A stretch of DNA of 64,000 nt from a virus: the IMG/VR virus record IMGVR_UViG_3300020165_002937; one strand, given 5' to 3'. How positions within the stretch are numbered: the stretch's first letter is position 1; each line of letters starts with the position of its first letter. A program made the translations under genes and the position numbers. Shown here in pieces: positions 18,920 to 64,000 of the stretch. Below the pieces are notes generated by a model, which was given only the letters and a program-made list of their open reading frames with translations, was not told the origin of the DNA and searched no databases.

Positions 18920-19696
18920 ATGTCAATCAATATGGAACTAATGCGGCGAAAGCTTGCAACACTACGAGGCGAAGGAGGAGATAACAGAGACTCAATCTGG
19001 TTCAAGCCAGATGAGGGTGATACTGATATCCGCATCGTACCTACATCGGACGGAGATCCGCTGAAGGAAATGTTCTTCCACTATAATGTTGGGGATCACA
19101 AGGGTGGCATCATGTGTCCAAAGAGAAACTTTGGAGAATCGTGTCCGGTATGTGAATTTGCTTCCCAACTATGGCGAGAAGGGGTAGATAACAATGACGA
19201 AGAAAGCAAGAAGCTTGCGAAGTCACTGTTCGTTCGAACCCGCTATTTCTCACCAGTCGTTGTCCGCGGCCGCGAAGACGAAGGAATCAAGGTCTATGGT
19301 TATGGCAAGCAAGCTTATGAGCTGCTTCTTGGCTACATTCTTGACCCTGAGTACGGTGACATCACCGATTCGCTAGAGGGTACCGACATCACGCTTACTT
19401 ACACTAGGCCCACACACCGTGGTGCATTTCCACAAACAAACTTAAAGATGCGTCGTAATACATCTAACTTGCTAGAGGATAAGGAAGCAATCCCCGCCCT
19501 CCTTGAGCGTATGCCAGAATTTGGCTCGCTATTTGAACGCCTTAGCCCCGCGCAAGTAGACGAAATCTTGGATGGCCAGCTTTCCAGCGACAAGACCGCT
19601 GAAAGCCGATCATCCACACTAACTAAGCGCTTTGGTCCCGCTGACGGTAAGAAGAGCGAAGTAGACCGAGCTTTTGATGAACTAGTAGCTGGTTAG
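18920..19696 (+). CDS. Single-stranded DNA-binding protein, gp32-like
   Basis: 'WFKP..G...IRIVP', 'CP......CPVCE', 'YGDITD...G.D', acidic C-terminal 'AFDEL'. Confidence 0.85.
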   Translation: MSINMELMRRKLATLRGEGGDNRDSIWFKPDEGDTDIRIVPTSDGDPLKEMFFHYNVGDHKGGIMCPKRNFGESCPVCEFASQLWREGVDNNDEESKKLAKSLFVRTRYFSPVVVRGREDEGIKVYGYGKQAYELLLGYILDPEYGDITDSLEGTDITLTYTRPTHRGAFPQTNLKMRRNTSNLLEDKEAIPALLERMPEFGSLFERLSPAQVDEILDGQLSSDKTAESRSSTLTKRFGPADGKKSEVDRAFDELVAG

Positions 19697-20857: not shown

Positions 20858-22009
20858 ATGATGGCAAAAGCAAAAACAAAATCAACGGCCGGCCGCGTAC
20901 CGATGCAAGATTTAATGAAACTAGTTAACAAGAAGGCCGGCCGCAACGTTGCCCATGACTTGACTGGCGAAAACCCAACCGCGGTCAAAGAATGGATCCC
21001 AACCGGCTCACGCTGGCTTGATTCCATCATATGCAAGGGGCAGCTAGCTGGAATTCCAGTTGGTAAAGTTTCAGAGATCGCAGGTCTTGAGGCCACAGGC
21101 AAATCATATATGGCTGCCCAAGTTGCCGCAAACGCTCAGAAAATGGGCAAGGTTATCGTTTACTTCGATTCTGAGTCAGCTATCGACCCAGTATTCTTAG
21201 CGCAGGCAGGGTGCGACCTAGAGCGATTAATGTATATTCAGGCATCTTCTGTAGAGTTTGTTTTGGAGACTATTGAAGAATTACTCGGCGCAACAGATGA
21301 ACAGCTGGTATTTATTTGGGATTCGCTAGCTTTGACGCCCTCGATATCCGATGTTGAGGGGGACTTTAATCCTCAATCTTCGATGGCAGTGAAAGCACGC
21401 ATTTTGGCCAAAGGCATGTCAAAGCTTGTAATACCAATCGCAGACAGTCAAGCGACACTGATAGTTTTAAATCAGCTTAAGACAAACATTCCCCAGGGGC
21501 CGATGGCAAGACAGATCGCGATGACAACGCCGTATATCACACCTGGCGGAAAAGCAATGCACTATTCTTATTCGTTACGCATCTGGCTGACTGGACGAAA
21601 AGCAAAATCTGCTTTTATTGAAGACGAGAAAGGCTTTCGTATTGGCTCTGAAGTGAAGGTAAAACTAGAGAAATCTCGTTTTGGCACACAAGGCAGATCC
21701 TGCGCCTTCCGCATTCTGTGGGGCAACGAGGTAGGTATCCGAGATGAAGAATCGTGGTTTGACGCGATTAAAGGCTCCTCCTCGCTTACGAGTGCCGGCG
21801 CTTGGTACACACTAAAGACGGAAGATGGTTACGAAAAGAAATTCCAGCCATCGAAATGGACCGATATCATCTCTCAGGACGAAGAATTCAGAAGTAGAGT
21901 GATCCAGATCATGGATGAAGAAATAGTTAGCAAGTTTGATAAACGACAGGGTGACGCAAAGAATTTTTATGAAGACCCAGGGGATTTAACCGTCCCACTT
22001 AATGGCTAA
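20858..22009 (+). CDS. recA: RecA/UvsX recombinase
   Basis: 'IPTGS..LD', Walker A 'GLEATGKS', 'YFDSE', 'IWDSL', 'LNQL', 'TPGGKA'. Confidence 0.92.
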   Translation: MMAKAKTKSTAGRVPMQDLMKLVNKKAGRNVAHDLTGENPTAVKEWIPTGSRWLDSIICKGQLAGIPVGKVSEIAGLEATGKSYMAAQVAANAQKMGKVIVYFDSESAIDPVFLAQAGCDLERLMYIQASSVEFVLETIEELLGATDEQLVFIWDSLALTPSISDVEGDFNPQSSMAVKARILAKGMSKLVIPIADSQATLIVLNQLKTNIPQGPMARQIAMTTPYITPGGKAMHYSYSLRIWLTGRKAKSAFIEDEKGFRIGSEVKVKLEKSRFGTQGRSCAFRILWGNEVGIRDEESWFDAIKGSSSLTSAGAWYTLKTEDGYEKKFQPSKWTDIISQDEEFRSRVIQIMDEEIVSKFDKRQGDAKNFYEDPGDLTVPLNG

Positions 22010-58059: not shown

Positions 58060-58145
58060 GGCTGATTGGTGGAATGGTATACACAGGAGACTTAAAATCT
58101 CCCGCCCGTTTGGGCTTGCGGGTTCGAGTCCCGCATCAGCTACCA
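58060..58145 (+). tRNA. tRNA-Leu(TAA)
   Basis: GGAGA-CTTAAAA-TCTCC anticodon arm, long variable arm, GGTTCGAGTCC, encoded CCA. Confidence 0.93.
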
Positions 58146-58150
58146 TTTAT

Positions 58151-58226
58151 GGGTTGTTAGCTCAGTTGGCAGAGCATCGGACTTTTAATCCGTAGGCCGT
58201 GGGTTCAAATCCCACACAACCCACCA
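58151..58226 (+). tRNA. tRNA-Lys(TTT)
   Basis: CGGA-CTTTTAA-TCCG anticodon arm, cloverleaf, CCA. Confidence 0.93.
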
Positions 58227-58234
58227 TTTTACAT

Positions 58235-58311
58235 AGGCTCTTAGCTCAGTTGGTCAGAGCGTCCCGCTCATAACGGGGTGGTCCTCGGTTCAAGCCCGAG
58301 AGAGCCTACCA
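58235..58311 (+). tRNA. tRNA with CAT anticodon (probably Ile2, possibly elongator Met)
   Basis: CCCG-CTCATAA-CGGG; acceptor stem AGGCTCT with C4-G69 as in tRNA-Ile. Confidence 0.85.
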
Positions 58312-58327
58312 TTTAATAGGAGAAAAA

Positions 58328-58531
58328 ATGACATACACAGTTATTTATGAAGAACAAACCACCGGAAACATGGGTACATTTACATTCGTATCAAGACGAC
58401 ATGATAAAAGCTATGCATGGGCAGAGTTTGAGAAAGAGTATGCACAAGAGGGGCAGACACCCATTATGATCATGCCGGGAAACCATCTTGTGTATTTTGC
58501 GTCTGACATTTCTTTTACAAATGTCGCTTGA
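58328..58531 (+). CDS. Hypothetical protein inside the tRNA cluster
   Basis: AGGAG RBS. Confidence 0.6.
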   Translation: MTYTVIYEEQTTGNMGTFTFVSRRHDKSYAWAEFEKEYAQEGQTPIMIMPGNHLVYFASDISFTNVA

Positions 58532-58556
58532 CTTAAACAGTAATTTAAGTTATATT
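58504..58556 (+). promoter_or_regulatory. Promoter of tRNA cluster 2 with TGACA-N6-TTACA repeat
   Basis: TTGACT-N17-TATATT. Confidence 0.65.
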
Positions 58557-58564
58557 ACTAACAT

Positions 58565-58641
58565 GCACCCTTAGCTCAGCTGGATAGAGCATCGGCCTTC
58601 TAAGCCGAGGGCCGTTGGTTCAAGTCCAACAGGGTGTACCA
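58565..58641 (+). tRNA. tRNA-Arg(TCT)
   Basis: TCGGC-CTTCTAA-GCCGA anticodon arm, A in the D loop, CCA. Confidence 0.93.
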
Positions 58642-58642
58642 T

Positions 58643-58718
58643 ACGGGTGTAGCTCAGAGGTAAGAGCAGTCGTCTTATATGCGATTGGTCGCAGGTTCAA
58701 ATCCTGCCTCCCGTACCA
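58643..58718 (+). tRNA. tRNA with TAT anticodon (Ile-type)
   Basis: GTCGT-CTTATAT-GCGAT anticodon arm, GGTTCAAATCC, CCA; one T-T mismatch in the acceptor stem. Confidence 0.8.
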
Positions 58719-59288: not shown

Positions 59289-59510
59289 ATGAAAACTGGC
59301 GACCTTGTAAAATATATCCCGACTGCATCTACCACATTTAAGTGGGAGACATACATAAATACAGAAAGCAGAAATCCAGGTATTATTATAAAAGAGGTTG
59401 ACCGCGGCGCTATTGCGACACGTCGCTTTCTGGTTCGCTGGCACAATGGAAAGGTCACCGAAGAGTGGGCAAGCTACTTAGAGCCTCTTAACAACTCCTT
59501 GACAGCATAA
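59289..59510 (+). CDS. MKxGDLV-family microprotein
   Basis: 'MKTGDLVKY...GIII...VRW...LEPL'. Confidence 0.65.
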   Translation: MKTGDLVKYIPTASTTFKWETYINTESRNPGIIIKEVDRGAIATRRFLVRWHNGKVTEEWASYLEPLNNSLTA

Positions 59511-59542
59511 ACCTTGACCACCAGCACATTCGGTGCTATATT
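59489..59542 (+). promoter_or_regulatory. Early promoter with direct repeat
   Basis: TAACA-N6-TGACA; TTGACC-N17-TATATT. Confidence 0.65.
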
Positions 59543-59567
59543 ATATGTGTAGAAAGGAGAAAAGTCT

Positions 59568-59723
59568 ATGATCGAAGTTGGATGTTTAGTAACAAATCGC
59601 TGGTTCCCTATGCAAAAGGTATATGTGGTTATTGATGAAATCGGCGAACACGCTCTCGTTGCGTGTCAAGAGAACATGCAAACGGCATGGGCCGAAAAGA
59701 AAGCATTGAAGGTGATCGGATGA
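59568..59723 (+). CDS. 51-aa MKxGDLV-related microprotein (not in the ORF track)
   Basis: AAGGAG RBS; 'MIEVGCLV...LKVIG'. Confidence 0.6.
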   Translation: MIEVGCLVTNRWFPMQKVYVVIDEIGEHALVACQENMQTAWAEKKALKVIG

Positions 59724-59923
59724 GTTGGCCACACTGTTTTGACTGCGGTGAAGAGTTCAACCCCAAGCGTAGAGCCTTGGGGTATGAGCATTGTTTGGAG
59801 TGCGGCGAGCAGTACGCACAAGAAACCGCCGAGCATAGGAAGAAATGTACAGCACCGCTTTATAACAAGGGTGCATATCAGTATGTGAGTAGCATGCAAG
59901 ACGCACGAAATGCGGGCAGGTAG
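59720..59923 (+). CDS. DksA/TraR-type C4 zinc-finger protein
   Basis: 'CFDCGEEFNPKRRALGYEHCLEC'. Confidence 0.6.
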   Translation: MSWPHCFDCGEEFNPKRRALGYEHCLECGEQYAQETAEHRKKCTAPLYNKGAYQYVSSMQDARNAGR

Positions 59924-59924
59924 T

Positions 59925-59968
59925 TGACATTCTCTTGACTTGACGGTGAGGGGTATCGGTGCTATATT
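59925..59968 (+). promoter_or_regulatory. Early promoter with direct repeat
   Basis: TGACA-N6-TGACT; TTGACG-N17-TATATT. Confidence 0.65.
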
Positions 59969-59987
59969 ATATGTATAAGGAGAAGAA

Positions 59988-60320
59988 ATGAAAGTTTGGG
60001 TTATGCAAGGAAGTTACGAAGGTGAGATGTTTAGCAGTGTCCACATGACACAGAAAGGTTGTGCGCTGGCGTGTATTGCTGATATAACAGAGTTTCATGG
60101 TATCGACGATGACGAAACCGCGTTGAGTGTGATGAATAATACATATCACGGCGAGACTGAAGAATACAAAGAGCCTATTGAGTGGGATCAGGAGAAGCTG
60201 AAAGAAATGACCAGCGAACAGCTTTGGAAGATTTTTGCTGACTGGTGTGAAATGAGTTGGGATCGAATGGCAGATCGTAGCTATAACCTTGACGCAAATG
60301 CTGTGGAGATCCAAGCATGA
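59988..60320 (+). CDS. Acidic hypothetical protein (paralog A)
   Basis: 'KVWVMQ...SSVHMTQKGC...SEQL..I..DW'. Confidence 0.65.
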   Translation: MKVWVMQGSYEGEMFSSVHMTQKGCALACIADITEFHGIDDDETALSVMNNTYHGETEEYKEPIEWDQEKLKEMTSEQLWKIFADWCEMSWDRMADRSYNLDANAVEIQA

Positions 60321-60622
60321 TGAACATTTGGGTAGTACGACAGACTTGCCTGTATGACAATGAAAGCTATGTGTCATCGCACTTGACGGAGAAGGGTGCT
60401 TTGATCACAGCAATCAAAACAGTGCGTTCAGATATGTGTGACGGCATTGACGAGGATGAGATGGAAGATATGCGTCCCGGCTTGCCTCACAACCCCGAGG
60501 AGGATTTAATGCAATACAGCAGCGAGCAGCTTCGCGGTATTGTTGAGGACTGGTGGGAGTATTCGTGGGACATTAACGAACAGGCGCAGTATCAGATTTA
60601 TGAAACACAGGTGGAAGGATGA
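60317..60622 (+). CDS. Acidic hypothetical protein (paralog B)
   Basis: 'NIWVVR...SSHLTEKGA...SEQL..I..DW'. Confidence 0.65.
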   Translation: MMNIWVVRQTCLYDNESYVSSHLTEKGALITAIKTVRSDMCDGIDEDEMEDMRPGLPHNPEEDLMQYSSEQLRGIVEDWWEYSWDINEQAQYQIYETQVEG

Positions 60623-60876
60623 AAGTTTTAACTACATTTATTTTAGTGGGAATGGTTGACTCTCACGATGCTCATTTCGCGACCGTGGAACTAAATACTA
60701 CACCAGCATCTAATGGTGGACCCGCGACAGCGGTGATGCCAGTGGCCGCTTTCCCGTGTGAGATTTACGAAGGTAAAGTTTTCTATGTGGTAAAGCTGCA
60801 CGACGAACAAGATGCGGTCATCGTATGCCAAAAGGAGCCAGAAGATGAAGAACCCCGACGAGGAAAGACTGATTGA
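60619..60876 (+). CDS. Hypothetical protein
   Basis: ATGA-coupled ORF. Confidence 0.55.
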   Translation: MKVLTTFILVGMVDSHDAHFATVELNTTPASNGGPATAVMPVAAFPCEIYEGKVFYVVKLHDEQDAVIVCQKEPEDEEPRRGKTD

Positions 60877-61033
60877 CGAGTGCATCGAGTCATATCGGAG
60901 AATGATAATGATGCATCGACAGAGTATTATTCGGCTGACGCGCCAGAAACTTATAGAGCGTGAGCCTTGCAAAGAATGTTTTGATTATGAGATTATAAAT
61001 GAAAGTGGGCGATCTGGTGAGGATGATAAATGA
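60845..61033 (+). CDS. Hypothetical protein
   Basis: AAGGAG RBS, CxxC. Confidence 0.45.
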   Translation: MKNPDEERLIDECIESYRRMIMMHRQSIIRLTRQKLIEREPCKECFDYEIINESGRSGEDDK

Positions 61034-61190
61034 TCCGACTACGTGGTTGGGGCATGGGATAGTTTTGGAGATCGGCAACACTACCCCTCACCTTCATCGA
61101 GCGAGGGTTCGATGGTTTGATGACTGGGACGATGAGTTGATAGAGTGGGTTCGTATAAGAACAATGGAGGTTCTAAGTGAAAGTATGTAG
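60999..61190 (+). CDS. MKVGDLV microprotein
   Basis: Family N-terminus; C-terminal 'MEVLSES'. Confidence 0.7.
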   Translation: MKVGDLVRMINDPTTWLGHGIVLEIGNTTPHLHRARVRWFDDWDDELIEWVRIRTMEVLSESM

Positions 61191-61278
61191 GTTTATAACC
61201 AGAACTTTCTTTGATGCTCTGTTTATCTATTGTAGCTATTATATCTTTTCGTCTATTTTCTGGATGGCGTTACAATGA
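61177..61278 (+). CDS. 33-aa hydrophobic peptide (not in the ORF track)
   Basis: GGAGG RBS, GTG start, ATGA coupling to the next gene. Confidence 0.4.
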   Translation: MKVCRFITRTFFDALFIYCSYYIFSSIFWMALQ

Positions 61279-61469
61279 AAGTAGGTGACTTGGTAAGGTT
61301 TGAGAGCGCGCTTAACGATAGCATGGATCATTACACCGTGGAACACGGTTTGGTGACTCAAATATCAAAGACTGGACACGACACCATATCAGCCCAAGTT
61401 TTATTCAACGATGGGGAGACTTGGTGGGTTGATTCTGGAAGGCTGGAGGTGATAAGTGAAGCCGGGTGA
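61275..61469 (+). CDS. MKVGDLV microprotein
   Basis: Ends 'LEVISEAG'. Confidence 0.7.
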   Translation: MKVGDLVRFESALNDSMDHYTVEHGLVTQISKTGHDTISAQVLFNDGETWWVDSGRLEVISEAG

Positions 61470-61632
61470 CAAAGTAAAAATGTCTCCGATGTGGAAGTAT
61501 GAAGAAGCCATGGGCGAGATCGAGAAAATAACAGAAAGTTATGTTATTGTCAAGTGGGTTGATATTCCCGGTCAATGGCATTATACTAAAGAACAAGCAC
61601 AAAGATTGGAGATCATAAATGAAGATAGGTGA
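61456..61632 (+). CDS. 58-aa MKPGDKV microprotein (not in the ORF track)
   Basis: GGAGG RBS; ends 'LEIINEDR'. Confidence 0.7.
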   Translation: MKPGDKVKMSPMWKYEEAMGEIEKITESYVIVKWVDIPGQWHYTKEQAQRLEIINEDR

Positions 61633-61846
61633 CTTAGTTAAACTTAAATCAATGCATCGTCGGCAAGCCCCGCGTGCAGGTTTGATCGTTGATTTGATAG
61701 AAAAGAAGTGTTGGCGTACAGGCGAGCTTGGCAATAAGGTAGACTGGAATAAAGTTGACCCCGAGCCACACGCAGTCGTTTTAGTCAATGGCAAAAAGTT
61801 GACCTTGCCTATGGTGGATTTAGAGGCTGTTAATGAGGGTCGGTAA
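61619..61846 (+). CDS. MKIGDLV microprotein
   Basis: Ends 'LEAVNEGR'. Confidence 0.7.
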   Translation: MKIGDLVKLKSMHRRQAPRAGLIVDLIEKKCWRTGELGNKVDWNKVDPEPHAVVLVNGKKLTLPMVDLEAVNEGR

Positions 61847-62015
61847 CTTAGTTAAGAGAAGGGATGATCACGTACACCACGGTATTGTTGTGGAGGTTGG
61901 TCCCCAAGAGACAGCGACTGATCACGGTTCTACTGTGGCTAAAGTTCAATGGAACGATGGCGATTTGACTTGTGAGTTTATAAAGATGCTTGAGGTTCTG
62001 AGTGAAGGTCGGTGA
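61833..62015 (+). CDS. MRVGNLV microprotein
   Basis: Ends 'LEVLSEGR'. Confidence 0.7.
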   Translation: MRVGNLVKRRDDHVHHGIVVEVGPQETATDHGSTVAKVQWNDGDLTCEFIKMLEVLSEGR

Positions 62016-62187
62016 TCTCATATCGTTCAAGCCGATTGACTTTGGTTTAGAAGACTGGTCAAACCCGTGCATTGTTATGAGCGAGTATGAAAGCCCCAAC
62101 GAGGGGCTGTGGTCTGTTTGGTGCGATGGGGTCTTTTGCGTCATAGATGACACCAACTATGAAATACTGCACTTGACAGGTTCTTGA
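62002..62187 (+). CDS. MKVGDLI microprotein
   Basis: Family N-terminus. Confidence 0.7.
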   Translation: MKVGDLISFKPIDFGLEDWSNPCIVMSEYESPNEGLWSVWCDGVFCVIDDTNYEILHLTGS

Positions 62188-62217
62188 CTTGACGCGGGAG
62201 CAAATGGGTGCTATATT
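62174..62217 (+). promoter_or_regulatory. Early promoter with direct repeat
   Basis: TGACA-N6-TGACT; TTGACG-N17-TATATT. Confidence 0.65.
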
Positions 62218-62236
62218 ATAAGAATAAGGAGAGAAA

Positions 62237-62413
62237 ATGAAAGTAGGTGATTTGGTGAAAGTCCGATCAAAGTTTGGAGGCTATAAAAACGGCATCGTTT
62301 TAGAAGTCAAGCAGGACGACTATAACTTTGTGACGATTGTGCAGCCGTCCGATGGTTCGCGTCAGCTTTACGCTCACCCTACCGACTTGGAGGTATTAAA
62401 TGAAAGTAGGTGA
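62237..62413 (+). CDS. 58-aa MKVGDLV microprotein (not in the ORF track)
   Basis: AAGGAG RBS; ends 'LEVLNESR'. Confidence 0.7.
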   Translation: MKVGDLVKVRSKFGGYKNGIVLEVKQDDYNFVTIVQPSDGSRQLYAHPTDLEVLNESR

Positions 62414-62681
62414 TTTGGTAACATTGTCAACGTATGCACTGTGTTCTGAGCCGATGTGGCGATGGAAACGAAAGATATGGAATGAAAAACATTCTCTTGT
62501 GGGTCTGGTTGTGAAGATTGAAGCAAACCCCAACATCCAGTCGTGGACATCCAAGAATGAAAGCACGTATTATTATATTAACTGGATGCAGAAAGATGGC
62601 CCACCGAGTCGCTGGAACAATACGGCCATTGGCAGGTTGCAGGGATATTTCCTGCGTAAAGATTTGAAGTTTGTGAAGTGA
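62400..62681 (+). CDS. MKVGDLV microprotein
   Basis: Family N-terminus; 'GLVVKI', 'INW'. Confidence 0.7.
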   Translation: MKVGDLVTLSTYALCSEPMWRWKRKIWNEKHSLVGLVVKIEANPNIQSWTSKNESTYYYINWMQKDGPPSRWNNTAIGRLQGYFLRKDLKFVK

Positions 62682-63043
62682 AACAAAGGAAAACAAGAAT
62701 GATGACAAACGAGTTTTTTAATACAGCAGGATCCGACCGCAACCGAGAGGTTGTGTGTGCCGATGGTTTTAAGATGAGCGTGCAAGCTCATGCCGGTGCA
62801 TATTGCCTACCTCGTATGAGTGGCGCACCCGTCTATCGAGAGGTAGAAGTAGGTTTTCCGAGCAAACGCGAAGAAATGCTAATGAAATACGCAGAAGCGC
62901 CAGATGACCCAACCGGAACGGTTTATGCGTATGTGCCGGTCCAAGTTGTGACGAACGTGATAGCAAAGCACGGCGGTATTGTTGACGGCGAGATCCCAAG
63001 AGGTGTTGCACCTATCGGTGTGCATTTCGTCGTTGACGATTAG
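62678..63043 (+). CDS. Hypothetical phage protein
   Basis: 'CADGFKMSVQA...YC.PR...EVEVGFPS'. Confidence 0.65.
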   Translation: MKQRKTRMMTNEFFNTAGSDRNREVVCADGFKMSVQAHAGAYCLPRMSGAPVYREVEVGFPSKREEMLMKYAEAPDDPTGTVYAYVPVQVVTNVIAKHGGIVDGEIPRGVAPIGVHFVVDD

Positions 63044-63087
63044 CTGACAACTCAGACGTTGACAGCAGCGCGCAAATCCACTATATT
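63034..63087 (+). promoter_or_regulatory. Early promoter with direct repeat
   Basis: TGACG-N6-TGACA; TTGACA-N17-TATATT. Confidence 0.7.
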
Positions 63088-63112
63088 ATAAGTATAGAAA
63101 GGAGAAATACAT

Positions 63113-63487
63113 ATGGGTTATCGTTCAGAAGTTATCTTGGCAGTCGGTCCAGAGGTTATGCCTCAGTTTATGGTCACAATGGCAAAGTCACCAGAGGCTC
63201 GTGAGTTGTGTTGGGCAGATCACGATGAAATGGTTAAGGATTATTGCGACATCAAGGGCGCGTTCCTGTTCCGTTGGGGCGGCATCAAGTGGTATGATAG
63301 TTACGAGTGCGTGCAAGCCCTTGTAGACTTTATGGATTGGTGTGAGGGCGAGCGCATTGAAGTCGAGGGCAAGGAAGTTGATGCTTCCGAGTATTATCGC
63401 TTCGTTCGTATCGGAGAGGAAATGGACGACAACGAGGTTCAAGGTTGGGGATTTGACATCCACATCGAGCGCAGCGCCACGTATTAG
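63113..63487 (+). CDS. Hypothetical phage protein
   Basis: 'MGYRSEV', 'IKWY', 'FVRIGEE'. Confidence 0.65.
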   Translation: MGYRSEVILAVGPEVMPQFMVTMAKSPEARELCWADHDEMVKDYCDIKGAFLFRWGGIKWYDSYECVQALVDFMDWCEGERIEVEGKEVDASEYYRFVRIGEEMDDNEVQGWGFDIHIERSATY

Positions 63488-63530
63488 TACCAGCCCGATC
63501 GCGCGATTTTTCTTCGCCAAAATTTTCCTT

Positions 63531-63583
63531 TTACAAACGCCTGACAAGCGCAACTTGACAATACCCCCGCACTCCGTTATAAT
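63531..63583 (+). promoter_or_regulatory. Early promoter with direct repeat, probably giving a leaderless transcript
   Basis: TTACA-N6-TGACA; TTGACA-N17-TATAAT; ATG 6 nt downstream. Confidence 0.7.
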
Positions 63584-63589
63584 ATAAGT

Positions 63590-63868
63590 ATGAAAATGAC
63601 AATAGTAATAGACTCTGATGATACACAAGGCATCGACGCAGCACTAAAGATTGCGCGCTTGATGCATGTAAAGTACGTAGGCACGGCAGCGGCACACAAA
63701 GAATCATTCGGGAAGATTGAGTTTATCAAGATGCTCCGCAAGTTTACGAAAGAATCCATTGAGCACCTTAATGATCCCGACTCCAATCAAGTCAAAGACA
63801 TTGGCGACATGGGCAACCTTCGCAACGCAAAGCGTTTCGCTGATCGCATCTTTAGAGGTGAGCGATGA
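63590..63868 (+). CDS. Hypothetical protein with L7/L12 C-terminal-domain-like motif
   Basis: 'KIEFIKMLR....GNLRNAKRFAD'. Confidence 0.45.
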   Translation: MKMTIVIDSDDTQGIDAALKIARLMHVKYVGTAAAHKESFGKIEFIKMLRKFTKESIEHLNDPDSNQVKDIGDMGNLRNAKRFADRIFRGER

Positions 63869-64000
63869 GAAGCCGACCAAGAGTAGGCGATCTGGTGAGG
63901 ATGCACACACATGACACGGGACTTGTCGGCATAGTTATCGACAGGCACCCAAAAGCAATATCCACAACGCCCGCACAAGTCGGTATTATGTGGGCTGGAG
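63865..64000 (+). CDS. GDLV-family microprotein (truncated by the window edge)
   Basis: GAGG RBS; 'MRSRPRVGDLVRM...GIVID'. Confidence 0.55.
   Translation, partial: MRSRPRVGDLVRMHTHDTGLVGIVIDRHPKAISTTPAQVGIMWAG

Follow-up and report, generated by a model that had tools for sequence, protein, structure and literature searches.

A two-frame joint shared by tiny barrel genes of an uncultured marine phage, and its possible role in module exchange

Results

The window that we analysed, 64,000 nt of DNA from an uncultured large marine phage (IMGVR_UViG_3300020165_002937), contains at 60999-62681 eight paralogous genes for Tudor/SH3-like barrels of 58-93 residues each. Neighbouring genes of this family are most often linked by the same short joint, read in two frames, in which the upstream gene ends 14 nt inside the downstream one. 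With modest confidence, we favour the view that this joint is plug-compatible, keeps the translation signals intact and serves as a site of module exchange by recombination within an early barrel-gene array.

A sequence-only reading of this DNA had listed six starts (61177, 61456, 61619, 61833, 62002 and 62400) as sharing a constant overlap, and at each of them the overlap with the upstream ORF is indeed exactly 14 nt. The upstream proteins end in MEVLSESM, LEVISEAG, LEIINEDR, LEAVNEGR, LEVLSEGR and LEVLNESR, and the family proteins downstream begin with MKPGD, MKIGD, MRVGN, MKVGD and MKVGD. The dual coding that it described is present: read one base earlier, the downstream M-K-V-G-D codons encode (N/S)E(S/G)R-stop, the tail of the upstream protein. 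Some details needed correction. The junction consensus that it quoted is exact at 62400 but at none of the other five starts; the start at 61177 has the 14-nt overlap but opens a non-family hydrophobic ORF, and the upstream stop there is TAG; and three family starts (60999, 61275 and 62237) were absent from the list. At the 61833 junction the stop is TAA, because residue 5 is Asn.

The standard joint is about 33 nt long, roughly TTGGAGGTnATnA(A/G)TGAAAGT(C/A)GGTGATTTnGTn, with a junction logo conserved from -13 to +19. The ribosome-binding site GGAGGT, at -11..-6 and 5 nt before the next start, is carried in the last strand of the upstream protein (L-E-V-I/L), and the upstream TGA stop, at +12..+14, is supplied by the downstream Gly4-Asp5 codons GGT-GAY. 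Of 151 non-redundant junctions between family genes, drawn from 36 sources, 114 (75%) show the -14 overlap and 23 a 4-nt overlap. Three exact copies of the 14-mer lie inside 1.2 kb, and a version with 23 specified bases has 17 exact matches in IMG/VR. The junction pattern is not due to chance, and the 14-nt junction is a family-wide standard.

All the features located here are on the + strand. An outlying and solitary family member, Z (59289..59510, 73 aa, MKTGDLV...), has orthologues in the related contigs L019, L023 and L025. At 59940..59968, a consensus scan indicated a sigma-70-like promoter, TTGACG-17-TATATT, which is the probable start of a transcription unit n1-n2-n3-n4-A-X-B-C-D-E-F. 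The non-family gene n4 (60845..61033, about 62 aa, predicted helical) has a tail, ...YEIINESGRSGEDDK, that reads through the start of module A (60999..61190, 63 aa), and its orthologues in L018, L021 and L025 bear the same tail. This overlap is 35 nt long since Gly4 of A is GGC, so that no TGA forms. The hydrophobic non-family ORF X (61177..61278, 33 aa, MKVCRF...) shares 14 nt with A, its 5' end resembling a junction (GTGAAAGTA-TGT-AGG), and is conserved in L022 (88%), L012 and L025. It overlaps module B (61275..61469, 64 aa) by the 4-nt ATGA. Modules C (61456..61632, 58 aa; junction 61456-61469), D (61619..61846, 75 aa; junction 61619-61632), E (61833..62015, 60 aa, MRVGN; junction 61833-61846, with the TAA stop) and F (62002..62187, 61 aa; junction 62002-62015) follow by 14-nt junctions. 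F closes its transcription unit, and its final codons (Y-L-T-G-S) include TTGACA, upstream of the next sigma-70-like promoter (TTGACG-17-TATATT, 62189..62217), which accompanies F in relatives. The first gene past this promoter is module G (62237..62413, 58 aa), joined by the canonical junction 62387-62419 to module H (62400..62681, 93 aa). H has a long insert, overlaps the next gene by 4 nt and is the conserved right-hand anchor of the array. A further family member (63865..64000), of which only the start is present as the window end cuts the ORF, has an extended N-terminus, MRSRPRVGDLV..., and does not cluster with o7, the family orthogroup that follows n7 at the same position in relatives.

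The AlphaFold2 model of module G is a five-strand Tudor/SH3-like barrel (pLDDT 89), and Foldseek matched it to Tudor domains, KOW domains and R67 DHFR with TM 0.74-0.80; profile matches to the NusG KOW and SETDB1 Tudor were weak (PDB profiles, E>=0.03). Pfam gave no match for 10 proteins even at E<=1, save sub-threshold noise, PHROG gave sub-threshold matches only, and no named homologue was among those found. Such blanks would suit a non-coding DNA repeat whose ORFs are not real genes. This is hardly credible, since the barrel model is confident, 462 homologues were found at E<=0.001 in many metagenomes, the core pattern G-I-V-V ... V-x-W ... W is kept, and codon changes between F orthologues are 12 synonymous and 3 non-synonymous. 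The proteins resemble small barrels of the Tudor (PHF1, SMN), KOW (NusG/Spt5), R67 DHFR and DsrB kinds in the five-strand model, and KOW domains in beginning with K-x-G-D-x-V. They differ in that no Pfam family reaches threshold, there is no evidence of an aromatic cage, and they are stand-alone proteins of 55-75 aa. ESM Atlas gave nameless clusters and a weak lead to DsrB (PF10781).

When the region was compared as DNA with 50,697 phage records, no match was returned, and tblastn with two family members against phage isolates gave nothing meaningful and no cultured relative with detectable similarity. In 596 Gb of prokaryote genomes, the junction pattern occurred only on 4 MAG contigs from four unrelated phyla, and this search gave no host signal. 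Three of the four hold arrays of five or six members, and the MAG contigs with arrays are therefore probably mis-binned phage DNA. Literature searches on MKVGDLV, such arrays, Tudor domains and overlapping starts found nothing relevant. The family is abundant in marine viromes, and no published description was found.

Part of the protein motif is a nucleotide-level constraint, as had been supposed from the sequence, and both codon tests and an orthologue comparison revealed constraint on the synonymous sites of the joint. GAG encodes the Glu of LEV in 87 of 91 cases (96%) as against 42% in gene interiors (p about 1e-25), and a distance of 8 residues between the L of LEV and the protein end is invariant (91/91). 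The x-E-V-x motif is present in 91 of the 115 members preceding a 14-nt junction and in 11 of 40 without a downstream gene, and the (N/S)E(S/G)R tail is mostly absent where no family gene lies downstream. With an open upstream frame, Gly4 is GGT in 142 of 152 starts (93%); the share is 68 of 113 in the remaining starts and 28% in interiors, with p about 1e-11 for either contrast. At junctions of the 14-nt frame, 53% of starts are GTG, as against 9% elsewhere, which may hint, indirectly, at upstream-dependent translation. Among orthologues, excess synonymous identity was seen at Gly4 (0.70 vs 0.29), at the Glu of LEV (0.88 vs 0.53), at Asp5 and at the Ser holding the GTG start, and was absent at Lys2, Val3, Leu6, Val7 and the L/V/I of LEVI. 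Extra constraint is thus limited to positions of the ribosome-binding site, start and stop, so that no DNA-level recombination signal is required there. No RNA structure was detected when 114 junctions were folded from -45 to +35 (mean z 0.04, 3% below -2); as a strong ribosome-binding site is present at each joint, independent initiation is possible.

These last results agree with a plainer view, in which the genes are an ordinary array of paralogues produced by tandem duplication, the shared ends reflect descent, fold constraint and routine signals, reordering comes from illegitimate recombination and selection, and neither recombination nor coupling depends on the joint in any special way. 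The fold constraints it names are the KOW-like K-x-G-D-x-V start and the hydrophobic last strand, and indeed MKxGDLV and the last strand have a structural place in the fold as well. First-in-unit genes without an upstream partner keep MKxGDLV, as a protein motif would. We nevertheless regard this view as rather unlikely. Where no upstream gene overlaps, Gly4 is still GGT in 54-64% and Val3 still avoids GTT (7% vs 39% in interiors), both far from interior usage. The dominant -14 spacing departs from the prokaryotic norm of -4, -1 or -8 (PMC12548453). Moreover, the base at the third position of Val3 differs by genome (p about 0.0005), which is not so for interior Val codons. This codon pattern fits homogenisation or recent relocation of joints; alternatively, which Val3 codon a genome uses could depend on whether AGG or CGG is preferred as the last sense codon before the stop.

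This last sense codon, which is AGG or CGG in most junctions and stands right before TGA, together with a downstream frame that is +1 relative to the upstream one, could suggest that ribosomes shift +1 at AGG-TGA, a rare codon and then a stop, to make polyprotein chains of barrels. Such frameshifting is very improbable and was discarded because of the sequence. With GGT after AGG or CGG, no re-pairing is open to the P-site tRNA, and the ribosome-binding site is 14 nt or more upstream of the shift site, a placement unlike that of the prfB frameshift arrangement. In addition, no module lacks a ribosome-binding site and start of its own, the modules at the head of a unit begin with the same MKVGD, and the family also uses 4-nt ATGA junctions and gaps.

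Module order was then compared on 8 contigs, i.e. the window and seven related contigs. Colinear invariant arrays, which the sequence-only reading had set against its idea of a connector for swapped modules, were not seen; relatives were not colinear, and motif-bounded genes are gained, lost or replaced among related genomes. Since single-linkage clustering at 40% identity fused the modules into one group, best-hit labelling was used instead. Modules recur with changed partners while retaining the 14-nt overlap: A is joined to F or B, B to C, D or o3, and E to F or H. Across the eight contigs, six kinds of left-hand context were found for F, four being different genes (E, A, o7 and unique members) and the other two a gap or a non-family gene. 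The DNA of F is 91% identical to its copy in L024, a 203-kb contig, whereas other genes shared with it have 34-80% protein identity. The two copies are 29% identical at -60..-16 and at least 93% identical from the start codon on, so that the homology begins at the junction. In L022, F is a chimera whose promoter-bearing end is replaced by KEVLNESR and a 14-nt junction to H. A homology block starting at the joint, a module far closer between two lineages than its neighbours and the acquisition of a joint-type tail all speak against simple tandem duplication. In its favour, non-family genes of the region (the n1-n2 block and q1) also relocate without such joints; generic turnover of a hyperplastic region could thus explain much of the shuffling, and breakpoints at gene borders are expected after selection in any case.

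Discussion

From the geometry of the joint and the comparison of relatives, we infer both translational coupling and recombination at the joint, which probably serves as a homologous-recombination site. According to the exchange model that we favour, paralogous early genes for small Tudor/SH3/KOW-like beta-barrels are chained by a standard joint, and ribosomes finishing one module would restart on the next, in units of up to 11 genes. Homologous recombination between joints would add, delete or swap whole modules, leaving frames and translation signals unbroken because every module bears the same ends. Genes for a RecA/UvsX-like recombinase and a gp32-like single-strand-binding protein are present in this phage. 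Ends that bear a promoter, as in F, may be a second type of exchange point. The barrels themselves probably form a set of binders used in host takeover or counter-defence.

A bolder version makes the 33-nt joint a self-propagating adaptor of a homology-driven cassette system, integron-like but without integrase, holding a rapidly reshuffled library of Tudor-like binders directed at host or defence proteins, with the Glu of LEV and the NESR tail existing only for their DNA/RNA function. Any module with standard ends, even the unrelated 33-aa membrane ORF, could then be inserted, removed or reordered by the phage recombinase with translation kept. We consider this version possible, and hold it only tentatively.

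Arrays of integron cassettes are similar in having small promoterless cassettes, unrelated in detail, behind a promoter, with a repeated site bounding each cassette and an order and content that vary among relatives. In contrast, the joints have no attC-like folded site, the cassettes here are paralogues, no integrase was seen in the part of the window's ORFs that was scanned, and exchange here would be by general homologous recombination. Translationally coupled overlapping genes, for which a review gives NTGA -4, -1 and -8 as the enriched spacings (PMC12548453), share with the joints the co-directional stop/start overlap and the ribosome-binding site inside the upstream gene, and restart by the terminating ribosome would be the expected consequence of this arrangement. 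The -14 spacing is outside the three classes of that review, is stereotyped family-wide and fixes both protein ends.

The closest analogue is the shuffling mediated by PeSLs, the promoter-early stem-loop cassettes of hyperplastic regions in T4-type phages (Arbiol et al. 2010, PMC2839356; Comeau et al. 2014, PMC4122927). These are non-coding promoter-plus-terminator hairpins, and the mechanism proposed for them is homologous recombination between motif copies (PMC2839356, PMC4122927). In both cases, copies of a short conserved motif stand between small, functionally uncharacterised early genes, and relatives differ by whole-gene insertion, deletion or replacement at the motif. However, the joint described here encodes protein in two frames and does not fold into a hairpin (z about 0). 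It contains the signals for ribosome binding, start and stop but no promoter; the promoters lie apart from it (59940 and 62189 among others). The genes that it joins are paralogues of one fold, and this phage differs from the T4-type phages with PeSLs in its DnaE-type polymerase and its lack of a close cultured relative.

The array shows how a phage can keep a large and fast-changing set of tiny genes expressed, every gene being interchangeable because the two-frame ends are identical. It is also a clean natural case of apparent protein motifs, the Glu in LEV and the NESR tail, dictated by nucleic-acid signals. As no Pfam family, PHROG family or published description was found, annotation pipelines will place starts wrongly or overlook members. 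Should the joint be a recombination site, it would extend the PeSL idea to a coding element and point to a library of small binders that likely act in host takeover or counter-defence. The promoter accompanying module F itself behaves in a PeSL-like manner.

Geometry of the array

Eight genes of one family of small proteins, modules A to H, lie between 60999 and 62681 on the + strand, with starts at 60999, 61275, 61456, 61619, 61833, 62002, 62237, and 62400; additional members were found at 59289 and 63865 (+). The sequence-only reading had placed six junctions with a constant 14-nt overlap at the starts 61177, 61456, 61619, 61833, 62002, and 62400, and every one was indeed an exact 14-nt overlap. 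In this joint, ATG-AAA-GTA-GGT-GA read one base earlier becomes (A)AT-GAA-AGT-AGG-TGA, so that the downstream M-K-V-G-D dictates the upstream N-E-S-R-stop. The variants of the upstream tail follow from the same two-frame logic. Ser replaces Asn when the start is GTG, Gly replaces Ser when Lys2 is AAG, Gly replaces Arg when Val3 is GTG, and TAA replaces the TGA stop when residue 5 is Asn (AAC), as at 61833.

The start at 61177 kept its 14-nt overlap but not its place in the family. It opens X (61177-61278, +), a hydrophobic 33-aa ORF (MKVCRFITRTFF...) between modules A and B, whose 5' end is joint-like with a 3-nt insertion. X is likely a real small membrane protein, since it is conserved in three other contigs, L022 (88%), L012, and L025. 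Module B (61275) starts in a 4-nt ATGA overlap with X, and module G (62237) starts after a promoter. The start of module A (60999) is overlapped by 35 nt by the upstream gene because its Gly4 is GGC and no TGA is formed. This upstream gene, n4 (60845-61033), is helical and does not belong to the family, and its tail, ...YEIINES, resembles the end of a family member; it then runs on for 7 extra residues owing to the same GGC. The extended tail was also seen in L018 and L021, and a shorter variant in L025.

A version of the junction with 23 specified bases matched 17 IMG/VR contigs exactly, and 18 further loci were added through orthologues of module H. The window and these 35 loci gave 390 members, or 305 once sequences at least 90% identical were removed. 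Among 151 family-to-family junctions, 114 were 14-nt overlaps and 23 were 4-nt overlaps (ATGA), the remainder being gaps or odd cases; conservation in the junction logo spans -13 to +19. Since a recent review lists -4, -1, and -8 as the spacings enriched in prokaryotes (PMC12548453), the dominance of -14 is a peculiarity of the family. The closest analogue is the PeSL-mediated modular shuffling of T4-type phages (PMC2839356, PMC4122927). However, the joint lacks both hairpin and promoter and codes in two frames, and is therefore not a PeSL. The likeness to integron arrays is one of outcome only. Among overlapping and probably coupled genes, the joint is an unusual case with a stereotyped spacing of -14; our literature search found no paper on the family or the joint.

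Codon constraint at the joint

Where the upstream frame is open across the start, Gly4 was GGT in 142 of 152 cases, compared with 68 of 113 at other starts; in interiors, 28% of Gly codons were GGT (p about 1e-11 for either contrast). In LEV, the last-strand motif that carries the ribosome-binding site, the Glu codon was GAG in 87 of 91 cases, and in interiors 42% of Glu codons were (p about 1e-25). The L of the motif stands eight residues from the protein end in 91/91, which fixes the distance from ribosome-binding site to start. GTG starts made up 53% at 14-nt-type junctions and 9% elsewhere (p about 5e-15). Val3 was GTC or GTA, and GTT was shunned (2.5% vs 39% in interiors), being still rare when there was no overlap (7%, p about 3e-8).

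The motif also depended on the neighbour. The x-E-V-x pattern was kept in 91/115 members with a 14-nt junction downstream versus 11/40 without a downstream gene, those lacking it among the latter ending in L-Q/R/K-V-V-type strands. Likewise, NESR-type tails predominated with a family gene downstream; without one, tails were varied and NESR-type endings were a small minority. This contrast shows that the LEV Glu and the tail are signal-driven, and supports the proposal that part of the apparent protein motif may be a nucleotide-level constraint. The E of x-E-V-x is here mainly a ribosome-binding-site requirement.

Among orthologues, we measured how often the codon was identical where the amino acid was identical. 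This rate was raised at Gly4 (0.70 vs 0.29 in interiors), Asp5 (0.84 vs 0.59), the LEV Glu (0.88 vs 0.53), and the Ser holding the GTG start (1.00 vs 0.34); orthologue pairs being phylogenetically dependent, no p-values are given. It was not above interiors at Lys2, Val3, Leu6, Val7, or the L/V/I of LEVI. Synonymous-site conservation was thus found at the ribosome-binding site, start, and stop and not at the other joint positions, so that the nucleotide-level constraint is real but punctate rather than an extended signal in the DNA.

Which third base Val3 carries depended on the genome: one contig used GTA throughout, and several others used GTC almost without exception (mutual information 0.38 vs 0.24 in shuffles, p about 0.0005). 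No such dependence was found for interior Val codons or the other joint positions tested. This fits gene conversion among joints; it could also arise if AGG or CGG is favoured ahead of the stop in a host-specific way.

Module order and exchange

We compared the order of modules in related viral contigs, written here with = for a 14-nt overlap, - for a 4-nt overlap, / for a short gap, and ~ for a longer gap; o1, o3, and o7 are family orthogroups not in the window, u is a unique family member, n and q are non-family genes, and the rows are trimmed, with flanks and most non-family genes left out. The window reads n1-n2-n3-n4-A-X-B=C=D=E=F / G=H-n5. Its relatives read n3 u / n4 A=F / o1=B C=D ~ n1 n2 E=H-n5 (L018); n1 n2 n3 B=D ~ (nine others)=F / u-u=u-H-n5 (L019); n3 n4 A=B=o3 / q1 ~ D=E=G'=u=u / F ~ n1 H n5 (L021); n3 n4 A / B=o3 ... 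n1 E u=F=H n5 (L022); n3 / n4 / F / o7=B=u ... H-C=A (L023); n3 n4 / u=u=A=B C ... H / n5 / n6 ... o7=F / u=u=... (L024); and n3 n4 A ~ F / B ... n1 E / H n5 (L025). The anchors, n3-n4 on the left and H-n5-n6 on the right, are mostly retained, and between them the family modules change order, with some missing and others added. A given module meets different partners with the same joint in front. Colinear, invariant arrays, which would have spoken against swappable modules, were not what the relatives contained.

One exchange, that of module F, could be resolved. Its DNA is 91% identical between the window and L024, a 203-kb contig, with 12 synonymous and 3 non-synonymous codon differences; the remaining shared genes have protein identities of 34-80%. 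Counted from the F start codon, DNA identity is 29% at -60 to -16 and 60% across the joint consensus at -15 to -1; beginning with the start codon itself, it is at least 93%. On the right, similarity crosses the stop into the -35 region of the promoter that follows and returns at its -10 region. The F C-terminus, Y-L-T-(G/S/T)-(S/P)-stop, is encoded by TAC-TTGACA-nnn-TCT-TGA followed by cTTGAC; in the window (62170-62217) it is Y-L-T-G-S-stop, TAC-TTGACA-GGT-TCT-TGA, then cTTGACg. As this coding sequence contains TTGACA, the last codons of F overlap TTGAC repeats just upstream of, and inside, the -35 element of the 62189-62217 promoter. The TTGACA-containing end is retained in 7/9 orthologues at least 45% identical and is altered in L023. 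In L022, it is swapped for K-E-V-L-N-E-S-R and a 14-nt junction to H, and this F is a chimera with a joint-type tail grafted on the F body.

We lean, with some reserve, towards a plug-compatible joint; of its elements, the two-frame geometry, the codon constraints, the reordering with the joint kept, and the phage's recombinase are shown directly. Ribosomes would restart at the joint. No RNA structure was found there, so coupling, if any, would mean that the ribosome-binding site close by captures the ribosome again as it terminates, and the excess of GTG starts fits a lesser reliance on de novo initiation. Exchange would proceed by homologous recombination between joints and also between promoter-bearing ends. 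Three points weigh against a special recombination role of the joint: the punctate constraint among orthologues, the movement of non-family genes as well, and selection, which would place surviving breakpoints at gene borders anyway. An ordinary array of paralogues is a less probable account that we still take seriously, and frameshift and artefact readings, even taken jointly, are very improbable; a remainder of the probability goes to none of these readings.

The protein family and its phage

The family alignment follows the pattern MKVGDLV-x(n)-G(I/V)(I/V)V-...-V-x-W-...-W-...-LEV(I/L). The AlphaFold2 model of module G has five strands (pLDDT 89), and Foldseek matched it to Tudor domains (PHF1, PHF19, SMN, LBR), KOW domains, and R67 DHFR with TM 0.74-0.80; a search of predicted viral structures (BFVD) gave many small, mostly unnamed viral proteins. 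A profile search of PDB sequences gave weak matches alone, to NusG KOW and SETDB1 Tudor, and Pfam and PHROGs gave nothing significant. Among 5.8 billion proteins, a profile search yielded 462 homologues, none of which has a name or a Pfam domain. Fold, size, hypervariable loops, and early-promoter context suggest a putative repertoire of early-expressed binders.

The window comes from a large, uncultured, myovirus-like phage. Its genes are all on the + strand (GC 43%), and the phage encodes a tail sheath, DnaB-type helicase, class II ribonucleotide reductase, DnaE-type polymerase, and GroEL. A gp32-like single-strand-binding protein (18920-19696, +, Pfam E 4e-16) and a RecA/UvsX-like recombinase (20858-22009, +, Pfam E 5e-35) co-occur with the DnaE-type polymerase in one phage. 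The closest protein matches in cultured phages are just 28-44% identical, and the array region had no DNA match in 50,697 phage records; the module G protein is present on contigs up to 186 kb. In 596 Gb of prokaryote genomes, the junction pattern was matched in just four MAG contigs. Their bins, Deltaproteobacteria, Flavobacteriales, Legionellales, and Methanocellales, belong to four unrelated phyla. These contigs are probably mis-binned phage DNA, since 3/4 carry five- or six-member arrays.

Five tRNA genes (58060-58718) encode Leu(UAA), Lys(UUU), Met(CAU), Arg(UCU), and Ile(UAU), and the joint consensus contains all the codons that they read (TTA/TTG, AAA, ATG, AGA/AGG, ATA), which may be a coincidence of A/T-ending codons. 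Finally, at least five good sigma-70-like putative promoters, TTGAC(A/G/C)-17-TATA(T/A)T, were seen in 59514-63583; by this consensus pattern, they lie at 59514, 59940, 62189, 63059, and 63555 (+), each ahead of a gene unit.
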